Shown here one piece after another: positions 11,832-64,000 of a stretch of 64,000 bases of DNA (positions within the stretch are counted from its first letter, which is position 1; each line of letters opens with the position of its first letter). Source of the stretch: Amphiscolops sp. MND2022. Taxonomy: Eukaryota. The DNA lies in assembly GCA_964187785.1 (NCBI GenBank), contig OZ076409.1, forward strand, positions 63,118,001-63,182,000, written 5' to 3'. Below the pieces are notes generated by a model. The model saw only the letters and a program-made list of their open reading frames with translations, ran no database searches and was not told the origin of the DNA. The position numbers and the translations under genes are program-made.

Positions 11832-11833
11832 AT

Positions 11834-28777: not shown

Positions 28778-29178
28778 TGTAATGCCATGATGCATGTCCT
28801 CAAAGATTCTATAAATCTGAAATACTCTGAACTCTTAACCAAAGCAATTAGTAAATATATTCTAATTTGGAAGCTAAGAAACTTCATTTAATATATCCTG
28901 TACCAAGCTTCCCCGATTCATCCTGTTGCTGTCACATTGTTAATTGATGAAACCTACCCTAGTTAATAGAATATATCTACTCGGAGAAATTGAGAATTCT
29001 TCCTAACAATCGGTCTTCCTCCCGCACTTCGAGAACTGAGATCTCAGAAATAGATTGTACTCAGAACTAGCTAGCTACAAGATATAAGACAAGACGACTC
29101 CGCTGTTAAAATCTTAGACTTCTTATGTCAGTAATAAAACTTCTAAAAGAAACCACCACACAACTTTTTAACAGCTCA
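28778..29178 (+). repeat. 3' LTR of Gypsy element
   Basis: tgtaatgccatg...ttaacagctca followed by the CTCA target duplication. Confidence 0.95.
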
Positions 29179-31764: not shown

Positions 31765-32765
31765 TCACTCCCCGGGCTTTATGCATGACGTCCCTGTCAT
31801 GCGGAGAGGCTGGCATTGAATACATCGCCACATCATGAGTGCAATCCACGGGGGTCTCAAACTGGTGATGTTGCAACGGTCCAGTGACACTGTCATCTTT
31901 TGCTGATTGGGCAACCATGAGGTCTTGCTTCTTGCCATCCAGAGAACCTGCATCGTCCAGAAACTGTTGAAAAGAGCTAGCTCGAGAGCTAGAAAACCAG
32001 TACTCAAAATGCACCTTGAAATTGATCAAATCCAAGATTCCATACATCAATCAAAAAAGCACCACTTTTTTAGCACGAGTTTTCTGCAAAAGTCTGAATG
32101 GGATCCTGCTAGCACTTTGGTTTTTGGACGTCTAAAATTTCTTTTACGGAGCGCTCACGCTCCAAAGCGCACGTGGTTTTCAGGAAAAACATCTTTTCCA
32201 CGGCAATAAAACTTCAGTTTGCAGCACAGTTAAAAGTTCTTTTCGCTAAAACTTCTTTTCAGTGGAAAACCACTGTTTAAAAGGAAAACAAGCTGTTTCT
32301 TCGATACTTTTTTTACAGTTCGGCTTGGTTTGGGCAACACGCACTGATGTGCAGCTCCATACCTGTGTAGAGTTCAGTAGCATCTGTCAAGGAGCGCATC
32401 AGAAGCAAACTACGAACTGCTCATAAGCATAAGCGCTGGAGTAAAGCAGACAAAGGTAGATCAAATCTTGCCATTTGCAGATCAGGAGCGCGCGCGCTCC
32501 TTATTTTTCCGGATATCACGTTGGAATCTGGAGGAAACTTCTGGAAATCTTGGAAAAGAAAAACAAAAATAGCACCTTTCGGGCGCAGCAATACATGTAG
32601 AGTTTTTGGGTTATTTATTGAATTAACAGAAGTATTTGAATTCAAACATCTCAAATAAAACTAAAACAAAAATGTCGCGACGTACGTTTACATGACTACT
32701 AAAATTACGAAACAAAGTTGCAGAAAAAACTGCTCCAACAAAAACATCACGCTGCAAGGTATCCA

Positions 32766-33740
32766 TTACCAAACGTAGTGATATCCTCCGGGCGTTATCC
32801 AATTGAGTTGATGAGTGTAGGGGTGTTTGTCTTCAAATGGGGCTCCCGGGGCCTTAGTTGACTCCCCGGGCCTTAGTCGTTGAGCACCCTCTTTCACATG
32901 AGGACAAAATTGAATGCCTGACATAAAAATGCAGCAGGAAAGATTAAGCGTTGACGACACCTCCTCCCCCTTTGAAAAGAAGTGGAGTGTGGTTTGGACT
33001 GGATAGACATCACCATCCAATAGCAGCAGGACATGCAACAAGCATGAAGCATCAGGAAATCCGATAAAGAAAATCTTGGAGACTGGGTCTGTCCCAAGAC
33101 TGGAATAGTTGTTCGGAGGACGGCCACGCCTATGTCCCTTCGGTCGAAGCGACCATGGTAGAACTTGGCGTGGTGGACGGCCACGGCGACGTCCATCGTA
33201 AAGGGACAAGAGAACTTTTTTCCATGAGTGCTCACAGTCTGTGCGGGGTGGTCGACCACGTCTATGACCAGTTGGTCGAGTTTTAGCTGAACCACCAGGC
33301 AACCAATTGATGAAGACTGGCGGGTCCACCTGAATAAAATCCTGTAGCACACGTTTAGCAGAATGTGGCTCAAAGGAGTCTTTCCGCAAATTCGGCAGCA
33401 ACTTCGTAGTTGATGTTAGGGACTTTGTTCCAGGGAAGTGAGAGTTGCTTACAGAATCTTGCGATAAGGAAGTGGAGGGTGAGATTGATATTCGTTCATT
33501 CTTCGTATCACTTGAGTGGAGGTTGCGCTCGCGCAACCCATTATCACCGGCGTGATATTCAGCCAAAGTCTCAGCAATACACAAAGCAATACATATGGTT
33601 GTGGTGTCCAAAGATATTGGGTCCACCCCCATGTCTTTTGTTGGCGGTGTCAATGGTTCTGATTCGACAGCGTCTGAAATATTGATCTGCATTTGTGCTA
33701 GCGCTCGCGCTATCGCTCGCGTAGCAGTTTCTCCTGGCAA
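32766..33740 (-). CDS. Hypothetical protein with three AT-hook-like (RRGRPP) motifs
   Basis: 324-codon frame on the element's sense strand containing GHRRGRPPR, GRRRGRPPR and GHRRGRPPN; start codon is non-ATG and uncertain. Confidence 0.5.
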   Translation of the reverse strand: MPGETATRAIARALAQMQINISDAVESEPLTPPTKDMGVDPISLDTTTICIALCIAETLAEYHAGDNGLRERNLHSSDTKNERISISPSTSLSQDSVSNSHFPGTKSLTSTTKLLPNLRKDSFEPHSAKRVLQDFIQVDPPVFINWLPGGSAKTRPTGHRRGRPPRTDCEHSWKKVLLSLYDGRRRGRPPRQVLPWSLRPKGHRRGRPPNNYSSLGTDPVSKIFFIGFPDASCLLHVLLLLDGDVYPVQTTLHFFSKGEEVSSTLNLSCCIFMSGIQFCPHVKEGAQRLRPGESTKAPGAPFEDKHPYTHQLNWITPGGYHYVW

Positions 33741-36700
33741 AGCGTGCTTTGTTCCAAAAAGTCTGATATCTCATCCACATAGAGTCCCGTAGTCGAGAGT
33801 GCGTCCCAGGCACGCAACGCTGCTGACTTGAGCTGTTCAGAATCAAACTTCGAAGTCCCATAGGAGTCCATAATTTATGACCCCTGCCGGCAATTTTTTT
33901 TAACCGTGGGATTTGCCTCGTTTGCACCCAGGAAGGTCTACTGGGCCCCTTCCGTTGAAAAATGAAGGCTTTTTGTGTCCGCCTCTTGTACAGCGGAAGT
34001 ATTGAGGATTTACAATGATAGTTTTTTGATGGATTCTTGGGATTTTCGTTCAAAACGTGTGTCTGAACAGAGTCAAATTCAGTTTTATTATTCGTGCTGG
34101 GTAAAAAATGACACAGCACAATTTGTCAGCTACACAAGTCAGAAAAACAACTTTCCGTAGCTGATAATTGCCTCCAGCTCCAAGCTAGAGCCGTTTTCAA
34201 CGAATTTTTGATTTTTCAACTTTTTTGAAAATCACTCAGATGGCTTTTACAAGTGCTGGAAACGTGGTATGGGGCTCAAAATTGGTCACGCGATCACACG
34301 TATAGCCAGCTACACTACAGTAACAACCAATGAAAATTCAGACCACTGGGCAAGATTTAGATCTGATACTGACGTTCCGTATCACCGTGTCTCGATTGAC
34401 ACGATTTTTCACATGCAATCAAAGACTCTCGTCCACAGTGCTGAGCTCTCGAGCTCACTTTTTCAGCAACGGTGCACCAAATGACACTAATAAGAATAGT
34501 CCAGGGCAATGTAATCCCAACTTCCCAATAAGGTGCGCCGACAATTCCGAAAAAATGGTCCAACTCGTTACAATACACAGGATATCACAACTTCAAGTAA
34601 CAAAATGCTATGATCCAGCAAGGCAGCCCACTCGATACTGATCAAACATTACACGCACAGCAATGAACGAACTTCTGGAAGTTCAAACTAGGGATTTCTA
34701 CAGGTTTCCAACACGTAGAAATGACTTTTTTCTCACTTTCCCAGTTTTCGTCTCGGTGAAACCTTAAACTGATACAATGACCATGCACGTCCAGGAAGAG
34801 TCAAAACTAGTTCCAAGGGTCGGAGTGTGCTGAAACGTATACAGCACTTCCGGATTGATGTACTGACCTAAAAATGAGTCCAGAATCGGGGTATTAGGAT
34901 CCAGTCACAGGTCAGAGGTTTTCCAGATGTTTGTTGGGTTTTTCAGCTTCACTTGAAAAAAAACTCCAGAGGCTAGCGCTAACGCTAGAAACGCAGGATC
35001 GGCTTCAAAATCAACCACACAATCCCACGTAAGTTGAGATACACGGGAATAATAGCTGATTTGTGCTGAGATGACTAGGTGAAATTTCAACACAGTACAG
35101 ACGTTCGGTATCACCGTGTTCCATTATGCAGTGTTCTTCACGTGTCAGAGTAGTGAAATAGACGGTGGTAGGCTTGCAGGGGGTCTTCTCAAGGATTTGG
35201 ACCTTTGCTCGTCTCGGTGAGGACTTGAGAAAATTGATGTTTTTTCAACGTCCAAGACTTCTCAAAACACGTTCTAAGGCTCGTAGGCTGTTCAAACTTG
35301 CACAACGCTTTCCCACAAGCTCACTGGGCCAGAAAATCAACCTGGTCTAGGGCAAAAAGTCTCCAGTCACCTACAGGAAGAATTTCAAAGAATTTTTGGA
35401 TTTTCCAAAAATCGCACCACAACACTCAAGAGGCTCGTGTGTGTGCTGGAAGCGCCGTATCAAGCCCAAAATTGACCAGCAGATCTTAGCTACACGTAGG
35501 TTTACGAAAATGAACACAGTTTTGAGCTGCGCCCCTTCTACACAGTTTCACCTAGGTACAGACGTGCGGTATCACTATGTACCGAAATGCACTGTTTCTA
35601 ACGTCTTTTTCAAGATTGCGGTCCACTGGAAGGAGCTAGCCAGCTCAAAATCTCTGCAGCAACGTAGGAACTAGCACAGGTTACGATGATGGGCTGCAAT
35701 ATAGCCCCACCCGTCGGCTAAGGTACCCGGGTTTTTTGGAAAAATTAAGAAAAAACTGCCTTTTTGCGCACTTTTTTGGGCACCGCGTTTTTCCTATTTT
35801 CTCAACAAGTATCACACAAATCGGCACCAAACTTGGTAGTTTATGCCAGTGGGCACCTACAGTGCCACTAAAAGGGTCGAATTGAAGCGCGAGCGCTTAT
35901 TTAAGGTTTCGATTCCTTATGGACGTTACACGCGAAAAAACACTGTTTTTGACGACTTTTTTTACAAATTGACCAAGAGGATCACCTCAGAAAGTGATAC
36001 GGCGGTCAAAATGGGACCAACGTGTTGCCCCACTATCCGTAGCACTGGGATAAACCCTCAATTGGTGGTGCCCACTAGGTGTAAGGCACTGACAGTCTTG
36101 CAGTTTTGGATTTTTTCGGTCCTTTTACGGTTCTCTGAAGTCGAAACGTCAGAGAGCTTTTCTCGACTTTGGTGAGCGATACGCCCACTAAATTTTCGGC
36201 ACCAACGTTAATTTTTGTGGTGGTTACGAAAATGCAACCACTTTGTGGCTAGGGTTCAGAAATCGATGATCCGACCCTAGCTCAGAGACAGTCCGGTTTT
36301 GTGGAAAATTGATCAAATTCAGTGCTTTTTTCCACTTTCCTCAGCACTGAATGGGAGTTTTTACACGCGGTTTTCACCACCACGCGTTATTTTTACTATA
36401 AAAACAGAAAATGAGAGCGCGCGGGCTCCCAGGTCTCGAAAACACTGAGTGCCCCATAGGTTTTAATGATGCACTCTGGCACTCCTGAAACTGGCCAAAA
36501 ATCAAGGTTTTTCGACCTGTTCTCACCAAGAAAACGTTACAAACTCTCTTAAATCCTATTTTCGGTACTGTGGAGTGTGCCCCAAACTAATAGCAGCACG
36601 GAAGAGGCAATTACATCACAATCCAGCACTCTCCCAGTGGCATTTCGTAGTGGTTTTTTGCCAATTTCGCCAAAAACCGGGTTTTTTCATGCCAAATGTG

Positions 36701-37564
36701 TCTCAAAAAGGACTCCAACGGCCTTTCTGGTTGTCGTTACATTATGTAGCATAACCCTCGAGGTTTTGGGCTGCTTTCTATTCATTTTTGCAACTGCTGT
36801 GGCTAATACTTCGAGCGCTCGCGCTCGTACCAAGAAAAGTACTCAAAAATGCCAAAAATCACGTTTTTGCGACTTTTGCACTAAAAATCGCACTTTTTTC
36901 ACTGAAAACGGGTGCAAAAGCAACACTTAGTTGCAACAGGGTAAAACTACAATACACAATCTAAAAATTTTTTCATACCATACTCCGAAAAACTGATACT
37001 TCTGAAATGAGGGGTGGTACTTTCGTCGTCTTTTTTCTCAACACCCAGACCAGCTAGAGAGAAACAGTTTGGACCGTCGGCAACGTCAGCACTTGTTCTA
37101 CCTTTCCACCAAAAACCATCCCTCTAGCACGTCTCCACGAGAAATGGGAAAGGAGAGTCGGGAACACTCGTTTCAGCTCATCTATCAGTCGGATGGAATA
37201 TGGTTCAACCATCAACTTCACCTCTCGTACATAGCCAAAAACGCTGAAATGAGCTGTAAAACACCTGTTATAACATGCGTAACGGCTTTCTAGCGGTTCG
37301 CTAAGCCATTACAAAGGTACCCGCTGATGGGAACGTGCAATTTTAGACGATACCTGTCAACAAATACCTGTTATCAAAACATACCATAGGTATTCGGAAA
37401 ATCCCCCGAACTACAGGAAAAATACCAAAATATAATGTCATATCATCTAAAAAATTTGGAAAAACTCTGGGTAAACGTCTCCTTCCAGAGTCCAATCGCT
37501 CTTGGCGTCCAATACCAGGGGGTCGGAAATTTCAAAACCATATAATAGGGCAGTAATCGGAAGC

Positions 37565-37583
37565 GATCCCTCTGTGGTCGCCA
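37565..37583 (-). promoter_or_regulatory. Primer-binding site, tRNA-Arg-like
   Basis: Minus strand TGGCGACCACAGAGGGATC resembles the complement of the eukaryotic tRNA-Arg 3' end (...GTGGTCGCCA); lies 15 nt inside the LTR boundary. Confidence 0.7.
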
Positions 37584-37598
37584 AAAAATGAGGTCTCA

Positions 37599-38371
37599 TG
37601 TAACGGCAAGCAGTTATCGGTCGCTTAACGCGTTAACAGAGGTGGAGGAACCTGCAGGAATGGGTGAATCGCTCGGGACAGGCGCCCATCGCCTCAGATC
37701 CTTTTTGCCTCCAGGGGTGAAATACGTCCCGGGGCCGCGGGTGCTTCGACGAATACTGTCCAACCGGTCCTAGTCTTTGATTGCTAATAGTAACGGGCAT
37801 CTTTCTGACTCTCTAAAGACCACCGCTTAACTAGCATATAAAAACAATGCCAAGAATAAGGTAAATTTCCAGTTCCAGGGTGACATGTGAATAAGATCTA
37901 AAATTGGGGAATAAGATCTAAACTAGCGCTAGCGCTACTGAATACAGCCAAAATCACTGAAAATACATGAAAACAGGCACGAATATGGCAAACCACACAG
38001 CTAAAAAGCTGGGGCGCAGGGGCTCCAAGCACCAAACAAGGATCTTTAGGCGAAAAGACTCATTTTTACGGTTTCCGCTACATAGGGTAGGATAATGCTG
38101 AAAATCGATAAAACCGGTGTTAGCACCTCAAAAAGAGTCTATTTTCGGATGTTCTTGCCGTCTCTGGCTTCTGTCATGGCGGCGCGCCCGTGTTTTTGCT
38201 CGTTCTTGCTCTTTGTTGTCGAAGTACCTGCCAATTTCGTGGAAACAGCGAAAAGAGCAATCACATGCTCAGTGCCACGTCACACATCGAATTAGAATTT
38301 TTGACAAAATTTCTGAACATGTCAAAGTTGCAAAATCGGTTGATATTGCTGTACCAGAGCTTGCCGTTACA
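37599..38371 (-). repeat. 5' LTR of non-autonomous element
   Basis: Direct repeat of 30992-31764. Confidence 0.92.
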
Positions 38372-39388
38372 TTTAATTGGTTTCCCTTGAAAAATTGGGT
38401 AAACTGTATTGACCTGTGCCTCACAGTTGGTGAATCATATGCCATAAAATATCGTCAACTTAATTTGGACTGCGAGAAATGTTGAATCATGTATGGACTA
38501 TTTCACTAGAACTGATATCAAACCATTCTAATGTATTCAAAAACTACCTTACGTATTACATAGAGCTTGGGGAAAAATCCATCTTCCCAATTTTCAAATC
38601 GAGTATGTTAGAGGAAAAACCTTAAATGAAGCTTTTTGTCAATCAAAATATAAAAAAGTGCGGTTCACTTTTAAAGGCTTGTCCGATTTTAGGATTCAGG
38701 GCAAATGTTTTCTCTGGTCGTCGAATTCTTTCTTAATTGTCTCTTCTTATCACCCTGCAACGTTTTAGGGGATGATTTGAAGACAAAGGGCGCAGCTTAG
38801 CTTTTTGTAGATATTCAGTAGACAACAAAAAAGTTTCCGTATTCCGCTTTCGCTGATTGTTATTCTCTCCGAAAAGCACTTTAGCAAAGTGCTCTACTAG
38901 AGATTTTGCGAGCTTAAACATTTTCAAGACGCTTAAAATGATAATTTTAAGCAAGTGTTTCTTTTGGATTTATGACGCAACTAAGGCGATTTGGAATAAA
39001 CAAACTACAATAGTAAATTGCGTGCAAATTTCAGTCACATAAGTGTTTTCCATTACAAAAAAAAAGATGTGAATAGCAATTGAACAACAAAATTAACGTA
39101 GTTTTAATGAGAATTCATCAAAAATTACAACATATGTGAAACTTCAAAACATCAACTTGCTCTAAAATACTTCGTTGAGTGAATCGAAATCAAGTCACTG
39201 TCAAATCAACAGACTCTAAATGAAAGAATTATTCAACTATGGCAAAATTTAGGACTTCTATAACTTCTAGCCGAACAAGTTTGATAAAATCAGTCCCGAT
39301 TACATTCAGCTATCCTAAATTTATATTATATGACATGTCTCATATGTGTTATACTTGTTCGCTTTCGATGTCGCTGATTTAAAAAAAT

Positions 39389-40121
39389 GGGAGGCGGAAA
39401 TTTCGTCGCCAGAAATTTCGTCGTCAGAAATTTCGTCGTAAGAAATTTCGTCGTATTAGCAAATCCAGAAATTTCGTCGTCAGAAAATTCGTCGTCAGAA
39501 ATTTCGTCGTATTGATTAGAATAACAGCGTTCACCAAAAGATATCATTTGAATTATACAATTACTTAATTATAAAAATGAGATCTTAAAAACAAGTTTCA
39601 TTTTGACACCAAAATTGAGTCAAAAAGTTAATTGCATTCAATCAACTCATCAAGACGCTTATTAAGCAATGGTATATTTTCAGTCCTACCGGTGGAACTA
39701 CTTACAGGGGCTTCACAATACAATTCAAGCTTGCTCCAGGGGGAATTTTTGCTTTTTTGTCAGAAAATTATCAAAAACTCCTTTGGTAATGGAAATTTTT
39801 GCTTTAAGTGTCGAAACAACTTCGTGTTGGGGGGATAAGAAACAAGGTGTATATGGGGAGTTATTATGTCCGAAACTTTTTCAAAACCATAGCAAAAAGT
39901 AGTCAATGATAGTAATTATTGCACAATTATCGATAATTATTAAGACTCAATAATAAGACGATTCCTAATAGAATAAAGAAAATGCGATGTTTTATAGAAC
40001 GTAATCACCGACGACGAAATTTCCGACGACGAAATTTCTGACGACGAAATTTCCGACGACGAAATTTCTTGCGACGAAACTTCTGACGACGAAATTTCCG
40101 ACGACGAAATTTCTGGTAATC
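39389..40121. mobile_element. Foldback/MITE-like element with inverted arrays of a 15-bp unit
   Basis: (AGAAATTTCGTCGTC)n at ~39396-39511 and its reverse complement at ~40008-40115; flanked by the 8-bp direct repeat AAAAAAAT (39381-39388, 40122-40129). Confidence 0.8.
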
Positions 40122-40179
40122 AAAAAAATATATAAAATCTTACAACAGCAAGTTTCTTTTTGTCAAGTTTTCCGTTTTT

Positions 40180-48381: not shown

Positions 48382-50537
48382 TCAGAATTCTGACAGACGT
48401 TTTCCATGAAAATACGCTTTTAAAATTTCCAATACGCCATGATGGAACTATTAATGCATATATCCATGAACTAATCCTTTAAATTGTACAGGCAATTAAT
48501 TTAGTTGACCTTTTCCGATACTTTTTCTTTGACAAACCGTCAAGTCCGGAAAATGTTCAATTTTTCGTGAAGTTCTATTGTGACAGTTTATGACAAAGAC
48601 CGCAATGCCACTTGTTGGACAGTCATTCCGTACCCTATTTTTCCAGTCATGAATTTTCATCTAGGGTTCATGCATCCATCTCAGGAACGTGCATTCCTTA
48701 TTAACAAGTCTCGCATCAGCTATTGGCCCTGTATTGGCAATTTATTTAATGTTGCTTCGGAGAAAATTCATCCAAAACCCATGGATGTTCTTGGATATAC
48801 ACTCATGACTCATACATGTTCCTGAAATGAATGCATGAGCTCTAGATGGAAAGTCATGACTGGGAAGAACAGGGTACTGAATGCATGTCCAATAAGTCAC
48901 GCAGTGGCACTGTGGTCTTTGTCATAAACTGTCACAAAACTTCACGAAAATTGAACATTTTCCATGCTTAACGGTTTGTCAACCCAGGTTGACCAAACAT
49001 ACTCACCATACTATGATCATAGTATGATCATACTACGATCATGGTCATTTCATGATCATGATCTTGCCAAGATCTTACAATGGCGACCATGTTTCATAGT
49101 ATGATCATACTATGACCATCATGTTTCATACCATGTTTCAAGAGAAAAAATGTAGTAAGAATGTCGGACATGGCAGCTACCTGTGCACATTGTTCACAGA
49201 AATTGCTTGCCGAAGTCCTTATGCTGTATTTTTAGGGAGGCTCTCAGCTCGTGAGATACATAGTATCACACTTGACGAGACCCACGACGAGAACGTGGCC
49301 TCCTTCGGGTCTCAAAACTGGAAAAGTATAAAACCAAAACTGTTTGAAAACAATTCAGATCTGTATTTAGATACACTATACCATAATAACACTAGACCAT
49401 AAGAACACTATAATGATACACTAGACCAAAATATCTAGTCATCGAAAACTCTGTGAAGACAGCGAATAGTATCTAAATTATGCATAATTTTGTCTTTAAA
49501 TCGAGAACAATATGTGAAACTTGGGCAAAATAGCTGCTAAATTTTGGAAATCAGCTATTGAAAAAGGAATCAGATCTAAAATCTGAGTCAATTTGATCTA
49601 AAAACGAAAACTAAGACAACGAAGGGTAACTAAATTATGCATAATTTGCGCCTCTATATTGAGAATATCTAAAATTTTGGCAAAATTGCTGCAAAATTAT
49701 GGAACTCAGCAACTGAAATAGGAATCAGATGTGCACAGGTAGCTGCCATGTCCGACATTCTTACTACATTTTTTCTCTTGAAACATGGTTTTCATACTAT
49801 GTTCATGATATGAAACATGATGGTCATAGTATGATCATACTATGAAACATGGTCGCCATGGTAAGATCTTGGCAAGATCATGATCATAGTATGATCATAC
49901 TATGATCATAGTATGGTGAGTATGTTTGGTCAACCTGGGTTGACAAACCGTTAAGCATGGAAAATGTTCAATTTTCGTGAAGTTTTGTGACAGTTTATGA
50001 CAAAGACCACAGTGCCACTGCGTGACTTATTGGACATGCATTCAGTACCCTGTTCTTCCCAGTCATGACTTTCCATCTAGAGCTCATGCATTCATTTCAG
50101 GAACATGTATGAGTCATGAGTGTATATCCAAGAACATCCATGGGTTTTGGATGAATTTTCTCCAAGTCAACATTAAATAAATTGCCAATAAAGGCCAATA
50201 GCTGATGCGAGACTTGTTAATAAGGAATGCATGTTCCTGAGATGGATGCATGAACCCTAGATGAAAATTCATGACTGGAAAAACAGGGTACGGAATGGCT
50301 GTCCAACAAGACGCGCAGTGGCATTGCGGTCTTTGTCACAAACGGTCACAATAGAACTTCACGAAAAATTGAACGTTTTCCGGACTTGACGGTTTGTCAA
50401 AGAAAAAGTATGGGAAAAGTTCAAATAATTAAATGCCCGTACAGTTTTGAAGATTACTTCATGCATATATACATTTATGTTTTCAGCATGACAAATTTAA
50501 AAGCGTATTCTCATGGAAAACGTCTGTCACATTTCAA
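48382..50537. repeat. Large inverted repeat (~800-bp arms, ~540-bp spacer) containing nested palindromes
   Basis: 48382-49188 is the reverse complement of 49729-50537. Each arm contains a ~450-bp imperfect palindrome (e.g. 48529-48980) and CATACTATGATCATAGTATG palindromes. Confidence 0.85.
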
Positions 50538-53500
50538 TTTTTTTTGAGAAACAATGCCAGAAAAGGAAGAAGCTGAAATTTCACCTTAATTATAGTTTCG
50601 AAAAAAAACCTCACCCAGTGTCATGAACATTTAGCTCAGGGTAATCATCGTTCGATTGATTCTCATATTGTCCATTCCTTGAGTTATTTTTTGTATTTAA
50701 GTTTCTCTGAACTTCGGAATTTAGTTCCGGTCTCTCGGGTCGAACGTCCCATCCTTTTTTGGTCTCGTGTCCCGATCCGGCCATAATAACGTTTTGGATT
50801 TGGGGAAGTACCTGAGTACTTATTGCATCACTTATGGCCCTTTGAATCTGAACACTCACAGAATTCATCATCTCGTCCATTTCCCGTGAAATTGCTTGCC
50901 GAAGTCCTTATGCTGTATTTTTAGGGAGGCTCTCAGCTCGTGAGATACATAGTATCACACTTGACGAGACCCACGACGAGAACGTGGCCTCCTTCGGGTC
51001 TCAAAACTGGAAAAGTATAAAACCAAAACTGTTTGAAAACAATTCAGATCTGTATTTGGATACACTATACCATAATAACACTAGACCATAAGAACACTAT
51101 AATGATACACTAGACCAAAATATCTAGTCATCGAAAACTCTGTGAAGACAACGAATAGTATCTAAATTATGCATAATTTTGTCTTTAAATCGAGAACAAT
51201 ATGTGAAACTTGGGCAAAATAGCTGCTAAATTTTGGAAATCAGCTATTGAAAAAGGAATCAGATTTAAATTCTGAGTCAATTTGATCTAAAAACGAAAAC
51301 TAAGACAACGAAGGGTAACTAAATAATGCATAATTTGCGCCTCTATATTGAGAATATCTAAAATTTTGGCAAAATTGCTGCAAAATTATGGAACTCAGCA
51401 ACTGAAATAGGAATCAGATGTGCACAGGTAGCTGCCATGTCCGACATTCTTACTACATTTTTTCTCTTGAAACATGGTTTTCATACTATGTTCATGATAT
51501 GAAACATGATGGTCATAGTATGATCATACTATGAAACATGGTCGCCATGGTAAGATCTTGGCAAGATCATGATCATGAAATGACCATGATCATAGTATGA
51601 TCATACTATGATCATAGTATGGTGAGTATGTTTGGTCAACCTGGGTTGACAAACCGTTAAGCATGGAATATGTTCAATTTTCGTGAAGTTTTGTGACAGT
51701 TTATGACAAAGACCACAGTGCCACTGCGTGACTTATTGGACAAGCATTCAGTACCCTGTTCTTCCCAGTCATGACTTTCCATCTAGAGCTCATGCATTCA
51801 TTTCAGGAACATGTATGAGTCATGAGTGTATATCCAAGAACATCCATGGGTTTTGGATGAATTTTCTCCAAGTCAACATTAAATAAATTGCCAATAAAGG
51901 CCAATAGCTGATGCGAGACTTGTTAATAAGGAATGCATGTTCCTGAGATGGATGCATGAACCCTAGATGAAAATTCATGACTGGAAAAACAGGGTACGGA
52001 ATGGCTGTCCAACAAGACGCGCAGTGGCATTGCGGTCTTTGTCACAAACGGTCACAATAGAACTTCACGAAAAATTGAACGTTTTCCGGACTTGACGGTT
52101 TGTCAAAGAAAAAGTATGGGAAAAGTTCAAATAATTAAATGCCCGTACAGTTTTGAAGATTACTTCATGCATATATACATTTATGTTTTCAGCATGACAA
52201 ATTTAAAAGCGTATTCTCATGGAAAACGTCTGTCACATTTCAATTTTTTTTGAGAAACAATGCCAGAAAAGGAAGAAGCTGAAATTTCACCTTAATTATA
52301 GTTTCGAAAAAAAACCTCACCCAGTGTCATGAACATTTAGCTCAGGGTAATCATCGTTCGATTGATTCTCATATTGTCCATTCCTTGAGTTATTTTTTGT
52401 ATTTAAGTTTCTCTGAACTTCGGAATTTAGTTCCGGTCTCTCGGGTCGAACGTCCCATCCTTTTTTGGTCTCGTGTCCCGATCCGGCCATAATAACGTTT
52501 TGGATTTGGGGAAGTACCTGAGTACTTATTGCATCACTTATGGCCCTTTGAATCTGAACACTCACAGAATTCATCATCTCGTCCATTTCCCGTGAAATTG
52601 CTTGCCGAAGTCCTTATGCTGTATTTTTAGGGAGGCTCTCAGCTCGTGAGATACATAGTATCACACTTGACGAGACCCACGACGAGAACGTGGCCTCCTT
52701 CGGGTCTCAAAACTGGAAAAGTATAAAACCAAAACTGTTTGAAAACAATTCAGATCTGTATTTGGATACACTATACCATAATAACACTAGACCATAAGAA
52801 CACTATAATGATACACTAGACCAAAATATCTAGTCATCGAAAACTCTGTGAAGACAGCGAATAGTATCTAAATTATGCATAATTTTGTCTTTAAATCGAG
52901 AACAATATGTGAAACTTGGGCAAAATAGCTGCTAAATTTTGGAAATCAGCTATTGAAAAAGGAATCAGATTTAAATTCTGAGTCAATTTGATCTAAAAAC
53001 GAAAACTAAGACAACGAAGGGTAACTAAATTATGCATAATTTGCGCCTCTATATTGAGAATATCTAAAATTTTGGCAAAATTGCTGCAAAATTATGAAAC
53101 TCAGCAACTGAAATAGGAATCAGATGTGCACAGGTAGCTGCCATGTCCGACATTCTTACTACATTTTTTCTCTTGAAACATGGTTTTCATACTATGTTCA
53201 TGATATGAAACATGATGGTCATAGTATGATCATACTATGAAACATGGTCGCCATGGTAAGATCTTGGCAAGATCATGATCATGAAATGACCATGATCATA
53301 GTATGATCATACTATGATCATAGTATGGTGAGTATGTTTGGTCAACCTGGGTTGACAAACCGTTAAGCATGGAAAATGTTCAATTTTCGTGAAGTTTTGT
53401 GACAGTTTATGACAAAGACCACAGTGCCACTGCGTGACTTATTGGACAAGCATTCAGTACCCTGTTCTTCCCAGTCATGACTTTCCATCTAGAGCTCATG

Positions 53501-56011
53501 CACTCATTTCAGGAACATGTATGAGTCATGAGTGTATATCCAAGAACATCCATGGGTTTTGGATGAATTTTCTCCAAGTCAACATTAAATAAATTGCCAA
53601 TACAGGGCCAATAGCTGATGCGAGACTTGTTAATAAGGAATGCATGTTCCTGAGATGGATGCATGAACCCTAGATGAAAATTCATGACTGGAAAAACAGG
53701 GTACGGAATGGCTGTCCAACAAGACGCGCAGTGGCATTGCGGTCTTTGTCACAAACGGTCACAATAGAACTTCACGAAAAATTGAACGTTTTCCGGACTT
53801 GACGGTTTGTCAAAGAAAAAGTATGGGAAAAGTTCAAATAATTAAATGCCCGTACAGTTTTGAAGATTACTTCATGCATATATACATTTATGTTTTCAGC
53901 ATGACAAATTTAAAAGCGTATTCTCATGGAAAACGTCTGTCACATTTCAATTTTTTTTGAGAAACAATGCCCGAAAAGGAAGAAGCTGAAATTTCACCTT
54001 AATTATAGTTTCGAAAAAAAACCTCACCCAGTGTCATGAACATTTAGCTCAGGGTAATCATCGTTCGATTGATTCTCATATTGTCCATTCCTTGAGTTAT
54101 TTTTTGTATTTAGGTTTCTCTGATCTTCGGAATTTAGTTCCGGTCTCTCGGGTGGAACGTCCCATCCTTTTCTGGTCTCGTGTCCCGATCCGGCCATAAT
54201 AACGTTTTGGATTTGGGGAAGTACCTGAGTACTTATTGCATCACTTATGGCTCTTTGAATCTGAACACTCACAGAATTCATCATCTCGTCCATTTCCCGT
54301 GAAATTGCTTGCCGAAGTCCTTATGCTGTATTTTTAGGGAGGCTCTCAGCTCGTGAGATACATAGTATCACACTTGACGAGACCCACGACGAGAACGTGG
54401 CCTCCTTCGGGTCTCAAAACTGGAAAAGTATAAAACCAAAACTGTTTGAAAACAATTCAGATCTGTATTTAGATACACTATACCAAAATAACACTAGACC
54501 ATAAGAACACTATAAGGATACACTAGACCAAAATATCTAGTCATCGAAAACTCTGTGAAGACAGCGAATAGTATCTAAATTATGCATAATTTTGTCTTTA
54601 AATCGAGAACAATATGTGAAACTTGGGCAAAATAGCTGCTAAATTTTGGAAATCAGCTATTGAAAAAGGAATCAGATTTAAATTCTGAGTCAATTTGATC
54701 TAAAAACGAAAACTAAGACAACGAAGGGTAACTAAATTATGCATAATTTGCGCCTCTATATTGAGAATATCTAAAATTTTGGCAAAATTGCTGCAAAATT
54801 ATGGAACTCAGCAACTGAAATAGGAATCAGATGTGCACAGGTAGCTGCCATGTCCGACATTCTTACTACATTTTTTCTCTTGAAACATGGTTTTCATTCT
54901 ATGTTCATGATATGAAACATGATGGTCATAGTATGATCATACTATGAAACATGGTCGCCAATGTAAGATCTTGGCAAGATCATGATCATGAAATGACCAT
55001 GATCATAGTATGATCATACTATGATCATAGTATGGTGAGTATGTTTGGTCAACCTGGGTTGACAAACCGTTAAGCATGGAAAATGTTCAATTTTCGTGAA
55101 GTTTTGTGACAGTTTATGACAAAGACCACAGTGCCACTGCGTGACTTATTGGACATGCATTCAGTACCCTGTTCTTCCCAGTCATGACTTTCCATCTAGA
55201 GCTCATGCATTCATTTCAGGAACATGTATGAGTCATGAGTGTATATCCAAGAACATCCATGGGTATTGGATGAATTTTCTCCAAGTCAACATTAAATAAA
55301 TTGCCAATACAGGGCCAATAGCTGATGCGAGACTTGTTAATAAGGAATGCATGTTCCTGAGATGGATGCATGAACCCTAGATGAAAATTCATGACTGGAA
55401 AAACAGGGTACGGAATGGCTGTCCAACAAGACGCGCAGTGGCATTGCGGTCTTTGTCACAAACGGTCACAATAGAACTTCACGAAAAATTGAACGTTTTC
55501 TGGACTTGACGGTTTGTCAAAGAAAAAGTATGGGAAAAGTTCAAATAATTAAATGCCCGTACAGTTTTGAAGATTACTTCATGCATATATACATTTATGT
55601 TTTCAGCATGACAAATTTAAAAGCGTATTCTCATGGAAAACGTCTGTCACATTTCAATTTTTTTTGAGAAACAATGCCAGAAAAGGAAGAAGTTGAAATT
55701 TCACCTTAATTATAGTTTCGAAAAAAACCTCACCCAGTGTCATGAACATTTAGCTCAGGGTAATCATCGTTCGATTGATTCTCATATTGTCCATTCCTTG
55801 AGTTATTTTTTGTATTTAAGTTTCTCTGAACTTCAGAATTTAGTTCCGGTCTCTCGGGTGGAACGTCCCATCCTTTTCTGGTCTCGTGTCCCGATCCGGC
55901 CATAATAACTTTTTGGATTTGGGGAAGTACCTGAGTACTTATTGCATCACTTATGGCCCTTTGAATCTGAACACTCACAGAATTCATCATCTCGTCCATT
56001 TCCCGTGAAAT
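49199..56011 (+). repeat. Tandem array of four ~1.7-kb near-identical units
   Basis: Units start at 49199, 50888, 52594 and 54301 (1689, 1706, 1707, 1706 bp); the same 89-aa ORF fragment recurs; junction microhomology GAAAT. Confidence 0.95.
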
Positions 56012-56325
56012 GCGAGAATTCAATTCACTTGACAACCTGTTGATCTCAGCACTAGAGTTGGCTGTAACTGAATTTTGATCATATTCGGTATTTGTTCTAA
56101 AGTGATCATTTCTCTGATTTCTACTTACATTTGCGTTTTCATTCACAGACTCATTGCTTGCAAAGCTTCTAGACCATCTAGGCAAGTTACTGTTCAAGCT
56201 ACCTTCTCTCTCTCTCTTGCGCTAAAATGATTTTCTCCTAACATAATGTCTATGTTCTCGATGTCTGACAGCATCTCGAGTCCTCTTGACTTTCTTGCCT
56301 TTTTCTGTTTTCTAGTAGTAGGCAT
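55730..56325 (-). pseudogene. Frameshifted ORF MPTTRKQKKARKSRGLEMLSDIEN...ISREMDEMMNSVSVQIQRAISDAISTQVLPQIQ; probable gag N-terminus within an LTR
   Basis: ATG at 56323-56325 (minus), frameshift in the (GA)n run near 56210, helical segment, and stop 8 nt after a TGACA terminus at 55738. Confidence 0.5.
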
Positions 56326-57389
56326 AGAAACAGTTCCAAATTACCAATGAATTATTCAATACGGAAAATAACAGCGTAGCTGTTTGTACTTCAATCGTTA
56401 CTAGTAGTGTCTCAAATGAATTGTGTCCCACTCAGGCCGAGTATCGGTATATATACTCGTGAGGGGATGACATTCACATACTTTACATTACTAGTCAAGA
56501 AAAATGGGGTCATGTGATATATTACTTCACAGGGAATGTCCCGACAACCGCATATTATTAGGGGACATTTAGGGAATGGCATTCAAAAGTCGTTTGATCA
56601 AGACAGAAATATCAAATCAGTTATTAACTAAGGCATCATATCAAAGCGTCAACAAATGTCTCCGCTCACATTCTTTACAGCGGAGTGCAGTGGAGGCACG
56701 TGCCGACACGAGTTATTGAGAATGGAATGTATCATCGCGTGTATATTGCTTCAATACAAACTAAATATATGTGAGAATACAATTTCATGTTAGGGCCAGA
56801 ATAGGCTCAAAATCATAAATTACACAGCTTTCAAAGAGACATGGTAAGATGGCCTTAATTGTCCACTCTTTTAGGTTAAGGTTATACAGACATTAAAGCG
56901 CTACAAATGCTTTAATTTAGTTTCAAATCATGGAAAGTTAGCTCCGAGTAATTACTTGCTAATTTAGGCAACAAAATACTATAATGCATGAACTGGCCGG
57001 AACCGGCCATTTGACGTGAGTACCAGTAAGCATGCACTGCGTTAAGTCAAAAGGCCTTATTCGGCCATTATGTAATAAAAGCGCCAATATTTCAAAAGGA
57101 ACGATGTGATTGGTTATCGATGTACAGCAAGTTACGTCGCCGAGAAAGGACGATTCCGCACTTGAACACGTTTCCTCCTCGCGGTTAATTTGCTTGTTGT
57201 TTATTATTGCATCAAATCAACCTTGCATTTTAATTCTATCTTACAACAAATACATCATCAAATTGATTTGGCCTGTCCCAAATCGTTAAATTAACAGACT
57301 AATATAAACTGCAACGTATTGGAAAATGTAATAGTTTGAGAGCAAATATTGTTACTAAAAATAAGTTTTGAAATACAAGATATACTTGT

Positions 57390-58271
57390 TTAAAATGTAG
57401 GCAAAGTTCCGGGCAATGTCTCCTGGCTGGTCGCTGTTGTCGTTATTAAGGTACCGTCACAGGCGGCAGCCTGCGACACTGCGGGTGTTATGAAGAGAAA
57501 AGCGCCTGCGTTTAGTCCATTTTCGTACGCTTCCCTTCTGATCTTCGTTATGTATTCGGGTTCTCCTCTAGGCTTGGACCTTTCGACGTACCATTCCACC
57601 TTCTCCTTCTTGATAGCCTCTGAGGATCTGCCACAGACCATGCATGCTGAATATAATTTCGTGCTAATATTTTCGTAGGGCCTGGTGTTTTGCACGTGGT
57701 AGGAGGCGTGAAAACCTCCCATAACCGGCTGCATCAGGAGAGTGTCCATACTCGGCCCTCTTTCGTGATCAGGCGGTGACATAGGCGACTCTGGCACGGG
57801 CATTAGAGTTTTGCAAATTTCAATCCGAGATTTGCCTGCTTTCTTTGGGGGAGCGTAACACATCTCCTCGTCAAAGTACTTGTGGTCAAACTTCGGAGTC
57901 ACGTCCGTTCGCATCTGGGAAGAACTGGGGCCAGCTTCTGGTTCGTCTTCTGAAGATTCCTCCATAGTCATTATGCGGCCACCAATTAGCACGGGGCTGG
58001 AGATGACCTCCCTTTCGATTCTTGCGACAAGCTGCTCCGTGTCTGTAGAACAGTCGGTCTCCCAATCCGATGACTCTCCCTCGCTGCTCGATATATATAT
58101 AACTGATCTCTCAGAATCATCAGAGTCAGATTCTTCTATACCGAATAGTTTCCTTGCGAGGTTATATTTGCTCATGATGACTTTCTTTGCTATTTTTGAA
58201 GCTACTGAGGCAACTGAGTTGAGATGGAGTTTTAGGTAGAATGAATTCGTCTGAACCAAGAAACTAGCCAA
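57390..58271 (-). CDS. Hypothetical protein (acidic Ser-rich N-terminus, CxxC motif)
   Basis: 293-codon open frame, probable ATG at MSKYNLARKLFG; contains SACMVCGRS; no recognised family. Confidence 0.65.
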   Translation of the reverse strand: MASFLVQTNSFYLKLHLNSVASVASKIAKKVIMSKYNLARKLFGIEESDSDDSERSVIYISSSEGESSDWETDCSTDTEQLVARIEREVISSPVLIGGRIMTMEESSEDEPEAGPSSSQMRTDVTPKFDHKYFDEEMCYAPPKKAGKSRIEICKTLMPVPESPMSPPDHERGPSMDTLLMQPVMGGFHASYHVQNTRPYENISTKLYSACMVCGRSSEAIKKEKVEWYVERSKPRGEPEYITKIRREAYENGLNAGAFLFITPAVSQAAACDGTLITTTATSQETLPGTLPTF

Positions 58272-59226
58272 GTTAGGCTATTTCCCGAAGTTTCAGTTTG
58301 GCGGTTAAAACTTTGGTCAATAGCCCCGATTCGTCACAAACATTCTTGAATGGAATTTCATAATTAGTCGGCTCCCTTTGATAACCTGATGTTTACCTCT
58401 CATCAGTGTCATCACTAGAAGAGGTGTGAATGACGCTCGACTTATGAATATCAACTACACTCGTCTCAAGTGGGTAATTAACGGGTCGCTTGTAAGCAAT
58501 TAGCGGCACGCGTCACCAAAATTTCTCGTAATGGCTCCAGCCAATCAGCGCTAAGCTTCGATAAGTTGTAAAAATAAATAATAAAAATGGCGAAAATAAT
58601 AAATCTAAACACTCCAAGATGGCGAAAATTCTACCTAAGTGTAACTGGACAAAACGGCAAAACAAAACGGGACAAACGGCCATAACTGGCCTCTAACTAA
58701 ATAAGTTGTAAATAACAAAGTTCATTGTACACTTCACTGGCAGACTCCATGTACAGAATAAATATGTAGATAATCAAATAATATTAGTCTGGTAATTTCT
58801 TCAGCCACGAACTCCAACTTTCCAATTTCTTCAATTCTTTACCCAATTTTAATTCCATTTCAATTCTATTTATATTTCATTTGTTCCTTTCACTTTGGAT
58901 TTGCTTCATCGGCATTTACCCCATTCTTATCCCCGTCCTAGCTGTATTTCTCTCTTCGTCGGGATAATCTCTTCCTTTCTTGCCGTACTCGGCCATTTCC
59001 CCAGCTTCCAGCAATCGTTCCCGCTTGGACCAGCGTTTGGCAGATCAGTCCCCCAGCGACATGTCTTCTGACTCATGTTGGTTTGGATTTTCATTTTAGA
59101 ACTCATTTAACTTGATCAGGGTCAAATTTGTTCAAAATACACTTCCTGTTTCCATCACTAAACACGTGATAACACGTTTCATTCAAATTTGTCATACACT
59201 TCCGGAAGGTTTCTAATCGCGGTAAA

Positions 59227-62200
59227 ATGGATTCGTATCAAGGAAGTACACCGCTAAATTTCATTCCCTTTTGTTTAGAGATTCCGCCAAAAGAGAATGC
59301 TTCTGCACCAACCTTACCCCAAGTCAACAGTCCTGTTAATGCCGAGGACTTGCCAACACTGATAGAGGGACACAAGCGAGGCGAGGCTGGTACTTCTGAG
59401 CCTCAACACGAAGCAAAACATGGTGGCTCAGCCGGTAGCCAAGACAGCGACACCGACATTACTGTTTACGCTGATTTTATGGTCCAACGGATGGAGCAAA
59501 CTCAATCCCCTGCCACGAAAGATAGTAGCCTTCCACCATCTGCCTCATCTCAAGGCCAAGAACTGACCTCTGGCACTCAGGAATTGATGCTCACTGTACT
59601 CGAAGAGCGTAGATCGAGTACTCCTATCCAGTCTGAGGAGGAGGGGAGACAAGGTGCAAATCTGTCAGCTTTGGAATCTGCCTTAGAAGTTGTCATGACC
59701 TCTGGGTCTCAGTTGCCTGCACTAAGGGATAGGGAAGATCCAAACCAATCAGAAGCAAGTGGCATTCAATCTAAGACTGACGAAGACAATGCCTCAAAAG
59801 TCTGTGATGTGCCCGCACTCCCAGGAGGCGACCTCAAGGTACGCTTCGCGTTAAGTCGCAGTGAGGAAGAAGAGTCCACAGAGGAGGCGAGCCGACTTGT
59901 CCCGGTGGAATTGTACGGGTATCCTCCTTTTGCCCCGGAAACCGAAACCGAGTGTGAAGGGGAAACCAGCTCTGAAAAGCAGCCTTTGGGGCCAGGTAAC
60001 ACGTGCGGGACCAGTGGAAGCCTTAACCAGGACAGGCTTCCGGACCTTTCAGGACGTAGCAGAGCCATCCTAAAAAAATATTTTGAGGAAGCATCCCCGA
60101 TTAGACTCCCTGTCGGACACACTACTGTCGCCTTCACTGAGCCCCAGGTGTACCATACTCTCCGTAGGTCCTTCAGTACCATGGAAAGAATGGTGCTTGA
60201 TGCTGTACGTGGATCTCCGACCGCCCTGCCATCACGAACGTCTCACTTTCAGCTTAGGGGACGAGCGCAAACCCCCGGACCTAGGCCTCAGAGCGATTCT
60301 GAAACCGACAGCGATCATCCTGGATCGGCTTCAGACCGACCAGGATCAAGTGCAGAGGACACCGGTGGGTCGTCCTTTTACGAAGAGACCGACAGTGCCA
60401 CTGAGATGGACTTAATATCGAAGTCCTTCAAGCAAGCCCCTGTAATTCCTCAAAGCAGAGAGATCCGGGAAGAAGCAGGAGACACCCAGCAACAGACAGA
60501 ACTCGGGGCAGAAGGGTACAGCAGCCAGGACACTACCTTGCATGAGATGCGTGAACAGGCGCAGAAAAACTTGGACGCGGGACCTTCCAAATCCAAAAAG
60601 AAGAAAGGCAATAAGAGACTTTCCCGGAGGGGTGTTCCCATGCGAGAAGAATTTTTCTCAAAAATAGGATGGACGAGGTCATTCATATCCGGTCCGGCAG
60701 ACCCTCTTCACAATCCCCATATGGTCTGGTGCCATATTTGTAAGAAAAACTTTTCTATAAAGTCAAAAGGGCCTTATGAGATCTTAAGACATCACCGGAC
60801 AGACCGACATTTGAGACGCGACCAAAGATGGCGGTACGAACATCTACGCAGCGTAGATCCTGTTAGCGGCAAGGTGCAACATCGGGTCAGGGGCGCCAAT
60901 GGCAAAATCCTGACAAAAATTGAGCTGGCCAGTCAACTGCACAAGTTCATCAACGTGGAATTAGTGGACTTCGGGGAGAGGTTCCCCTTCTATGAAGATT
61001 TCTTGCGCGGAACCACTACTGCCTTGGTCACCCAAGAAGCGCGTGTTAAAACCCAACTCTGTCTGGTGGGCGACTTCATAAAGACGATAGGAGACCTCAC
61101 TGTCTTGAGTAACTTGTGGTCCAGGATGGGTGCCTACACCAACCACCAGGCTACAGTCTGCGATTTTGACTGGGGCGAAGAGCGCATAAGTGTAAGGGTA
61201 TTTCCGTTCTCTTGTTCATAATCTTGAGTATTTCTTGTCCTAAGTAGTTTTGTTTCCTTTTCAGGCCATATTCCAGCATTTTTTCATAAGTGCTTTGAGT
61301 GACATTGCCGAACACGTCACTACCCAACAATGCTTTGCCGTAGAGTTCGAGACTGTAGGAGTTTATCGCTACATGACTGTCAAATTCTGGAAGGGCCATG
61401 AACTCTGTCGAGTTCTCATCTGTCGAAGCTCCCTTCCCGCAACTGATGTGACGGGTGAACTTGGATCTCTGGTCGGTTCTTGTCGGCAGTATCGACGCAA
61501 CCTGATGTGGTGGCGTGTTCCGGTTGCCATGTTGACCTGGTGAAGACGATTGACCATTCGGACTACTTCCCGCAAGGGTTCAAAGCTGTTTCCGCTTCGA
61601 GCAGCTATCCTTGCCCACCCTGATGCATAAGTCCAAGTATTCTGTCTTTGGCCAGATAGACTTCTTCTCTGTGCTCCAGGCTCTGATGGTGTCCTTAGGT
61701 GGTTCCCTCACAGAAGAATGGGCGCTGCGTAGCCCAGAACTCACTAAAGTAAGTACACCCTTCTCGTCTTCCTTCCTCTTAGTTGTAGAATGAGTAGTGT
61801 TGGTACAGTGTGAATTCCTCAACATTGAAATGGGTTTTTGCAGGCAGTTACCAGTTGCAAGCTTGACGTCCGGACACTTCCAATTCTCTGTACAGAGCTT
61901 GTCAAGGAATGGAGACTCATCCTCCGGTACTTGACTGAACATGCCTCTATACAAGGAGGTCAAGGGGTTCGCAGCAGGGTTAGACCTTATCTTATCCCTT
62001 TAATAGTACTCTTAGGTGGTTCCAGAGGGGGGCGGGTTTGGCTTCTTTTCTTGCTTGGAGACTGATAATCATTCACGTATGTGTTCTGCTTAAGGTACAG
62101 AGCTTCGAATGGTCCCTGATCTGTGACGAGTTTTTCGTTGTCAAGCTGGAGTTCTTTAACAGGCTCACGAGTGACTGTAAGTATCTCACTTTAAGGTGAA

Positions 62201-63409
62201 AAGCCACGGTTTTATTCCACTTTAGACACCAGACGTATGTTTCCAGACGTGTCCAGTTTCCCTGTGAACCTCCAGCATAGACGTGATGCCTCCTTTTACC
62301 TTTGTGGGGAAGTCTGTCGGTTTTTGAGCCTGCTCAGTTCCCGCGTCTATACTCCTGATACTGCCCCCTTGGCGAATGCTTGGTTCCTGTTGCTACGCTT
62401 CCAGACTAGTGAGGCCACTTTCCTGGTTGAGGAGGAGTATTTGGTGCGACTGAAGCTCACCAACAAGGTGTCGTCTGCTAGCAAAGCAAAGGCCGAAGGG
62501 ATGCACTTTGGTAAGAAGTCGGAGCGCCCAGCAATCCTGGCGACTACTGAGACTGTAAAGTCTGATTTCGTCAAGGACAGTCAGCAGTACGTGCAGTACC
62601 TTATTAATGAAGTTCTTCGGCAAACTGGGCTAACCACCAACATCGTGAAAGGGATGGCTACTTTTGACCCTTTCATACTATTCAAGCGCCCTATGGACGT
62701 GGCCCTACGCCACTTCGACATCTTGTAAAGTACCTTTTCCCTCCGCTCCTGGGTATCCAGTACTAATGAGTCCTTGTGCCGGGATCAGTACATGCAGCTT
62801 CTCGATCATCTGCGTACAGCTTATAGCCCAGATTTCGATATTACCAGCGTCTCCCGTGATTTAATTGAGTTCTTGTCTGAGCTGGAGTTCCTTCGAGATC
62901 GTAGCTGTTTGTTCTACCTGTTCAAATTGTGTTGTTTGTGTGCCACCACTGTCAGTCCTACATATCCTGATGTTACTTTCGGGACAGTTTCTACCGCTGG
63001 ACGCCATAGCAGGTTAACTGACGTCATTCTTCCTGTTCAAAGTTATATGTCTAACGTGCGAGATGCAGTTGCTTTCTGTAGTGATGACAGAAATCTTGCC
63101 AGATTCATTGACTTCTCTTCTTCTTTCGGGCGTTCAGCATTTGCTCCTGATTATGATCCTTGGAGCTACATGGACACTTTTGGCCGTTCAAAAATTTACA
63201 AGTCACTGCTTGCTTCTTGCCGTGTGGCTCTTTCTTCCCCTCAAAAGGCTCTGGTCTGGATTGCACCTGATGATGTACATTCTGTAGCTGACACATCCGC
63301 CGTGAAGGCCCCTTCCAGCACTAAACGGAGGAAGATGGAGCGTCGCGCTTCCCGTTCATCTTCATCATCTGCCGTCGAGGCTGACGAACCTAGTTCTTCT
63401 AAAAACTAA
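59227..63409 (+). pseudogene. Spliced gene for a large protein with a BED-type zinc finger; frameshifts and one premature stop
   Basis: VWCHICKKNFSIKSKGPYEILRHHRTDRH finger. Phase-compatible GT-AG introns at 61192-61264, 61749-61843, 61979-62094 and 62177-62225. In-frame TAA at 62726-62728 separates two same-frame ORFs. 5' end uncertain. Confidence 0.75.
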
Positions 63410-63643: not shown

Positions 63644-64000
63644 CTAGTATCTGAAGTCTTCTGAGTAGTTTGGGTTAGGGTTAGGTCTGAGGTTATATTT
63701 CCCTCCTCTTGGACTCAGGCTTTCATTTCTAGCATCGTTTTCGGATATTTCGGGCACGATAATATCATCCCCCCTATTTGGAGAATCTTGTGTATCGTTT
63801 TCATTCGTCAAGTTTCTTTCTGAAAAATTTTCATCGTTTTCCGGTCTACCTGCCGTATTCGGCAAGGATTTTTCTTGGTTTTTTGGGGAAACGGCCGGAT
63901 TCGTCCAATCAGATTTGTCATTGCTAGCCGCTTCACTAGCTTCATTCCTTTTTGTGACGTCATGATTTAATCTTTCATTCCGGTTCCGCGCCGCGTGGTC
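63644..64000 (-). CDS. C-terminal tail of an ORF entering from outside the window, like Gypsy integrase tails
   Basis: Low-complexity acidic tail ending GGKYNLRPNPNPNYSEDFRY-stop; compare the tail TTYKLRQQPKLDYR ending pol of the first element at ~20870. Confidence 0.55.
   Translation of the reverse strand, partial: DHAARNRNERLNHDVTKRNEASEAASNDKSDWTNPAVSPKNQEKSLPNTAGRPENDENFSERNLTNENDTQDSPNRGDDIIVPEISENDARNESLSPRGGKYNLRPNPNPNYSEDFRY

Follow-up and report, generated by a model that had tools for sequence, protein, structure and literature searches.

We analysed a 64,000-nt stretch of the genome of Amphiscolops sp. MND2022 (GCA_964187785.1, contig OZ076409.1, positions 63,118,001-63,182,000 of the forward strand), hereafter the window, together with the next 10 kb past its end (L001, in which the window numbering continues from 64001). 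The stretch carries a long terminal repeat (LTR) retrotransposon in which a four-intron gene, here called the cargo gene, lies antisense to gag-pol, in the interval that separates pol from the 3' LTR. The anatomy of the element, the linkage of the gene to it, the conserved splice sites and the purifying selection described below are direct observations. As to what the gene does, we give about even credence to the interpretation that it is an accessory gene of a Ty3/gypsy-type lineage whose product is a catalytically dead hAT scaffold, acting in the nucleus as a DNA-binding activator or anti-silencing factor.

The host element

An earlier reading made from the letters of the window (the sequence-only reading) had described a pol-like tail at 63644 and a putative 3' LTR. 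Both are real: extension past 64000 revealed reverse transcriptase (RT), integrase (IN) and gag, and a 5' LTR that completes the element. The window copy measures 15,947 bp, with TG...CA ends and a 5-bp target-site duplication (TSD). Its parts other than the cargo gene are as follows (ORF, open reading frame; aa, amino acids).

55733..55737, no strand: 5-bp TSD, its partner just past the 5' LTR, outside the window
55738..57478, minus strand: 3' LTR, 1741 bp, with TG...CA ends and 98.2% identity to the 5' LTR
57390..58175, minus strand: ORF-B, a second accessory ORF, 261 aa, sense to gag-pol, with an acidic N-terminus and a CxxC motif, reaching 29 codons into the 3' LTR
58176..59226, no strand: intergenic stretch of 1.05 kb between the divergent ORFs
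63644..64000, minus strand: 3' end of pol; L001 continues with RT, RNase H, integrase, protease and gag, window numbering 64001-70345
69946-71684 (L001:5946-7684), beyond the window: 5' LTR, the repeat of 55738-57478

The minus strand of L001 encodes gag, protease (PR), RT, RNase H (RH) and integrase, in the order gag then PR-RT-RH-IN, with an RT of the LTR group. The solved structures that best match this RT are, as we take them to be partly from their entry codes, foamy-virus, caulimovirus-type and Ty3 enzymes. From its RT motifs the element is presumably of Ty3/gypsy type, with the proviso that its gag matches DUF1759 and that the gag-PR-RT-RH-IN order also fits BEL/Pao.

Twenty-one elements were assembled from neighbouring stretches, and 17 of these were resolved; for three no LTR pair fell within range, and in one an end was masked. 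The resolved elements are 15.9-16.5 kb long, with LTRs of 1.7-1.95 kb ending in TG...CA and a 5-bp TSD in 17/17, and in six of them gag and a pol frame of 1736-1738 codons are both open. Their LTR pairs are 97.6-99.9% identical, which indicates that the sampled subfamilies inserted recently. Immediately after the 5' LTR stands a conserved sequence starting with TGG, a putative primer-binding site (PBS). None of the 17 has a polypurine tract (PPT) next to its 3' LTR, the preceding 20 nt being only 25-40% purine.

The ends of the element show some further peculiarities. In most resolved elements the gag frame begins over 100 codons inside the LTR, continuing through the PBS (L001:5946-6345 and window 55738-56221, minus strand), and an ATG is created at the LTR/PBS junction. 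A pyrimidine-rich, acceptor-like stretch (57479-57500) is found within ORF-B, just before the 3' LTR, in 17/17 elements.

Linkage of the cargo gene to gag-pol

Protein searches of the genome each returned 5,565-7,957 first-look candidates, which are not copy numbers (102-150 were scored per search). We fetched 77 cargo loci picked to span the subfamilies, 57 nearer and 20 distant; all were selected by the cargo gene, so that linkage is read from cargo to pol only. RT or integrase lies antisense to the cargo at a constant distance in 55 of the 57 nearer and 18 of the 20 distant loci. Of the four exceptions, L009 has an internal duplication that moves pol out of range, and L027, L114 and L118 are derivatives. 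In all 77 fetched loci the cargo gene belongs to the element, and its position is constant across them at identities of 27-100%. The gene is thus multicopy, with thousands of candidates, and linked to this pol, two points on which the sequence-only reading had hinged.

Among the exceptions, the three derivatives have lost the RT and IN cores and kept cargo exons and LTR or gag pieces; the spliced cargo frame of L027 is open. The 4.8-kb duplication in L009, which takes in ORF-B and the initial portion of the cargo, is also present in L005/L006, 95 kb away on the same contig (C6).

Homologue searches with the cargo protein returned only ENA proteins without names; one protein, P0203, reaches at best 55-56% identity with this genome, which hints at a relative elsewhere. 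A scan of viral contigs found no cargo relatives. The sole match of a metagenome scan (L121) was rejected, being out of frame and on a GC-rich, bacterial-looking contig.

Exon-intron structure and splice-site conservation

The cargo frame runs from an ATG at 59227 to a stop at 63407-63409. Exon borders were placed by extrapolation from the protein alignment alone, and it is from conservation that we infer transcription and splicing. The layout in the window copy, all on the plus strand, is as follows (NLS, nuclear localisation signal).

59227..61191: exon 1, with a low-complexity acidic, Ser-rich N-terminus of ~470 aa, an NLS-like stretch, a finger and a helical region
60589-60618: basic NLS-like stretch KSKKKKGNKR, within exon 1
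60727-60810: C2H2 BED/TTF-like finger, within exon 1
61192..61264: intron 1, 73 bp, phase 0, GT-AG; 69-249 bp in relatives
61265..61748: exon 2, core with a predicted RNase H fold, matched best among solved structures by Hermes 153-264
61749..61843: intron 2, 95 bp, phase 0, GT-AG; exactly absent in L119
61844..61978: exon 3, 45 codons
61979..62094: intron 3, 116 bp, phase 0, GT-AG; exactly absent in 9/54 loci (L038, L041-L048)
62095..62176: exon 4
62177..62246: intron 4, 70 bp, phase 1, conserved acceptor at 62246; a subfamily-only alternative acceptor at 62225 (49 bp)
62247..63409: exon 5, with a helical region, a lead to the hAT C-terminal domain, and a tail that is basic and disordered

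Splice sites were compared in 54 loci (58 stretches minus L005, L006, L009 and L040), a set picked by top score and hence biased towards intact copies. The donor GT of introns 1-4 is present in 53/54, 51/53, 44/45 and 51/54 loci, and the acceptor AG of introns 1-3 in 52/54, 51/53 and 45/45. The 20 distant loci give a similar picture, with donors at 20/20, 17/19, 19/19 and 17/19 and acceptors at 17/20, 18/19 and 18/19. Intron sequences and lengths vary freely among loci. Judged from these alignments, the GT-AG pattern at the exon borders is not due to chance.

The sequence-only reading had proposed four GT-AG introns in phases 0, 0, 0 and 1 that join the fragments into a protein of more than 1200 aa. 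Introns 1-3 (73, 95 and 116 bp) and the fourth donor at 62177 stand, and the 49-bp intron 4 does not: its acceptor has AG in 15/54 loci, against 53/54 at the in-phase site 21 nt downstream (62246). A protein of the proposed size is likewise encoded by other copies and not by the window copy, which is broken by 1-nt gaps near 61472 and 61575 (exon 2) and a stop at 62727-62729 (exon 5), also has an in-frame 24-nt gap near 60156, and once spliced meets its first stop at codon 747. The spliced frame is open in three of the 15 close relatives aligned with the window copy, and with acceptor 62246 an open frame of 1268-1341 aa is found in 19 of the 54 top-scoring loci. The broken state of the window copy, the better acceptor and the conserved ORF-B had all been overlooked.

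In L042, intron 2 is absent together with two codons. The exact absences of introns 2 and 3 listed above bear on a wider question, in that the cargo gene would be a case of exact intron gain or loss in an element replicated through RNA.

The cargo protein and its likely hAT origin

The KSKKKKGNKR stretch and the W-C-x2-C...H finger pointed out earlier are both present. The proposed H-x4-H spacing needs amendment, as one of its histidines is Tyr in 4/28 sequences; the zinc ligands C, C and H-x5-H are each invariant (28/28). The zf-BED profile matched 1/67 members, at E 0.11.

The exon-2 model aligns near-colinearly with Hermes 153-264 (109 model residues on 112 chain residues, root-mean-square deviation 2.9 Å), and the match takes in the helix preceding strand 1. 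All hAT scores are sub-significant, and other RNase H-like folds tie. Two separate cargo regions point to hAT families in Atlas, the C-terminal one to PF05699 with a score of 0.87; Pfam gave no PF05699 match in 78 + 34 proteins, and the exon-5 model is poor (predicted local distance difference test score 59, no meaningful fold match). Pfam searches of the cargo exon frames and alignments yielded no family above chance, PDB sequence searches with three cargo alignments gave no match at E up to 10, and a viral fold library returned only weak RNase H-like rows. A genome search with PF14291 gave no matches and so yielded no autonomous hAT donor, which is uninformative since the control likewise matched nowhere.

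The catalytic triad of Hermes consists of D180, D248 and E572 (PMC2533014). With catalytic positions assigned from aligned ranges rather than by residue-level superposition, the end of strand 4 is S, T, L or R and never Asp in 46/46 cargo sequences, the strand-1 position is E instead of D in 45/46 (in a register ambiguous by 2), and the His position of CxxH is F in 44/46. In a motif comparison with what we take to be the hAT consensus, the C-terminal helix region showed no acidic residue that is conserved. Three core residues, E27, G87 and R111, are invariant. Apparently, then, the cargo protein lacks the D-D-E triad and CxxH of an active hAT transposase, as aligned here, with the second Asp and the CxxH His lost. 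The idea of a captured hAT-like gene is supported by the Hermes match and the Atlas leads, if only weakly by score, and the DDE residues that might have accompanied it are missing at strand 4. It is likely that the cargo gene descends from a hAT transposase that lost catalysis.

Selection and evolutionary history

Among 16 close copies, changes shared by at least two copies have a ratio of nonsynonymous to synonymous change (pN/pS) of 0.15 in the N-terminus, 0.04 in the core and 0.12 in the tail, in contrast to 0.88, 0.65 and 0.62 for private changes. Low ratios in shared and high ratios in private changes imply that selection acts via replicating copies, not on each inserted copy; the cargo gene is under purifying selection acting through element replication. 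In 41 distant pairs (from ten copies with intact cargo, RT and IN), pN is 0.19-0.46 for the cargo, where synonymous sites are mostly saturated, versus 0.015 for RT and 0.022 for IN. Between the distant clade and the window copy, RT is mostly 88-92% identical and exon 5 only 27-34%.

The integrase and cargo trees show an identical two-clade split, yet overall share only 3 of 12-14 supported splits (34 of 46 rows). Across 17 elements the three parts of the cargo covary (Spearman 0.78-0.88), whereas cargo and LTR divergence correlate at 0.30-0.49 and there is no covariation with gag, pol or ORF-B either. Since the parts travel together and the clade split is shared but most other splits are not, we conclude that the cargo is ancient in the lineage and has been shuffled as a block, and we infer that recombination is most likely responsible.

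ORF-B and the divergent intergenic region

ORF-B is full length (256-263 aa) in 12/17 elements and has no Pfam match. Between it and the cargo gene, the centre of the intergenic stretch is better kept than either gene, with a block at ~58485-58884 conserved at 77% identity, versus 47-65% in the cargo. The block contains CCAATCA at 58541, found in 17/17 elements, and two CGCCATNTT motifs, at 58584 and 58616, which we take to be YY1-like; 15/17 elements have CGCCATNTT, the mean after shuffling being 0.01-0.04. On these sequence features, the intergenic stretch is likely an internal bidirectional promoter for the cargo gene and ORF-B.

Possible function and competing explanations

Under the interpretation favoured here, a hAT gene would have entered the interval between pol and the 3' LTR in reverse orientation, at a time preceding the lineage's deepest split, and would then have lost its terminal inverted repeats (TIRs). 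Its introns would persist through reverse transcription because the genomic RNA holds their reverse complement. Integrated copies may transcribe and splice the cargo, using the internal promoter that would also serve ORF-B; the protein would then go to the nucleus and bind element DNA via its zinc finger and transposase scaffold, and the acidic disordered N-terminus could recruit transcription or chromatin factors, such that elements with intact cargo leave more copies. A lock-and-key co-evolution of cargo and LTR was looked for in the 17 elements and not seen, and this lack of co-divergence weakens a strict VANC-like model. That result agrees with a hAT-derived tether that needs no match to LTR sequence and acts after reverse transcription, binding element complementary DNA or integrase and aiding nuclear entry or target choice. 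The NLS-like stretch and zinc finger would suit such a role, strong selection through replication suggests action near the element's own progeny, and nuclear import is among the roles proposed for plant antisense ORFs (PMC7264820). We nonetheless think a tether unlikely, as the 17 TSDs have no obvious common motif, copies are spread over contigs C1-C13, and within clades the cargo is freely shuffled relative to integrase. Catalytically dead transposases can also repress, and the product might limit the element itself as a repressor, control its copy number, or serve as a decoy against host or hAT factors. Antisense transcription could feed double-stranded RNA silencing (PMC7264820), but selfish variants should shed a pure repressor, and the gene stayed intact in those copies that had progeny, in a family that is very abundant and recently active; this alternative appears improbable.

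Less probable still is an enzyme with a rewired active site used in replication, for instance in plus-strand priming. The purine-poor sequence before the 3' LTR and the invariant E27, G87 and R111 would fit, but the strand-4 Asp and a conserved C-terminal-helix acid are both wanting, pol carries its own RNase H, and coding by ORF-B constrains the place where a PPT would lie. We rate just as low an origin from another RNase H-fold or a host zinc-finger gene: the sub-significant hAT scores and tied folds leave room for it, against which stand the near-colinear Hermes match, helix included, and the two separate regions that lead to hAT families. As for a nested hAT insertion, a functionless passenger or a single host gene, the broken window copy might have suggested as much. 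No TIR pair frames the cargo, however (the best flanking pair is AT-rich and 73% complementary), there is no 8-bp TSD, the flanks are common to all copies, and the same position in 77 loci together with purifying selection already refutes the idea, to which we attach negligible weight. A bolder possibility, which we advance only tentatively, is that a full-length class II (hAT) transposase has been taken up for good by a class I element, in the form of an antisense gene that is spliced, and that the element relies on it to replicate; its role would be that of a dedicated DNA-binding regulator or, boldest of all, of a rewired RNase H-fold enzyme replacing the missing PPT. Cargo and divergent ORF-B would then form a two-gene accessory module resembling that of complex retroviruses, in an element that may account for much of this genome.

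Other features of the window

A tandem array of four ~1706-bp units (98-100% identical) occupies 49199-56011, with an inverted partial copy at 48495-49190. Each unit holds the 3' LTR end and TSD junction, so the array was amplified after the element inserted. Another LTR element, of 17.7 kb, lies at 11431-29178 (plus strand). Its LTRs measure 401 bp (99%), its GC skew is strong, and it has gag and RT-RH-IN; a fusion glycoprotein ORF of Monjiviricetes type (PF24664) spans two frames (22155-24909), and ORFs without assignment also lie at 21020-22255 and 25107-26516. At 30992-38372 there is a 7.4-kb element with 774-bp direct repeats (99.5%) and an unassigned 334-aa frame (32769-33770, minus strand), and at 39379-40143 are 15-bp tandem repeats in two inverted arrays ~550 bp apart, resembling the ends of a small DNA transposon.

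Comparison with known systems

In the literature searched, the scope of which excluded most subscription papers, Repbase and supplements, we found no case of an LTR element carrying an antisense gene that is both hAT-like and spliced; neither 'antisense' nor 'intron' occurs in the available part of PMC13317346. The closest parallels are antisense extra ORFs of plant gypsy elements (Retand/Tat TRP28, PF04195; maize Grande gene23; RIRE2) and of fungal Boty. According to PMC7264820 and PMC11963269, the plant ORFs also lie antisense between pol and the 3' LTR in most copies, with DNA binding predicted, the Grande protein is nuclear and has its own promoter, and the origin and function of such ORFs in LTR retrotransposons are called unknown. 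For Retand, which bears antisense TRP28 ORFs, the word 'intron' occurs nowhere in the available text of PMC11963269. The cargo has no sequence match to PF04195 and differs in its length (~1,285 aa), four introns, recognisable hAT-like fold and paired divergent sense ORF. It would thus be an antisense extra ORF with a recognisable likely source, a hAT transposase, and with spliceosomal introns kept through reverse transcription, and it would show one transposon class domesticating the enzyme of another. With candidate loci in the thousands and numerous recently active subfamilies, it makes the origin and function of antisense ORFs testable.

With hAT transposases and their derivatives (Hermes; Buster/ZBED5, ZNF862, GTF2IRD2, EPM2AIP1) the cargo shares a C2H2 finger, a predicted RNase H core and the C-terminal PF05699 lead. 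It differs from them in that it has no TIRs or 8-bp TSD, has apparently lost the second Asp and CxxH His, has a 470-aa acidic N-terminus and is borne by a retrotransposon rather than domesticated by a host.

HBZ of human T-cell leukaemia virus type 1 (HTLV-1) is a small bZIP protein and is spliced. HBZ and APH-2 of HTLV-2 are antisense nuclear regulatory proteins of an LTR element (PMC11963269); the HBZ promoter is the 3' LTR (PMC7264820), in contrast to the likely internal promoter and transposase scaffold of the cargo. The VANC anti-silencing proteins of VANDAL DNA transposons differ in their DNA transposon host and MAIN-like fold (PMC13547354), and co-divergence of cargo and LTR was not seen here; like the cargo as interpreted above, each is a fast-evolving accessory protein serving its own element (PMC6719617).
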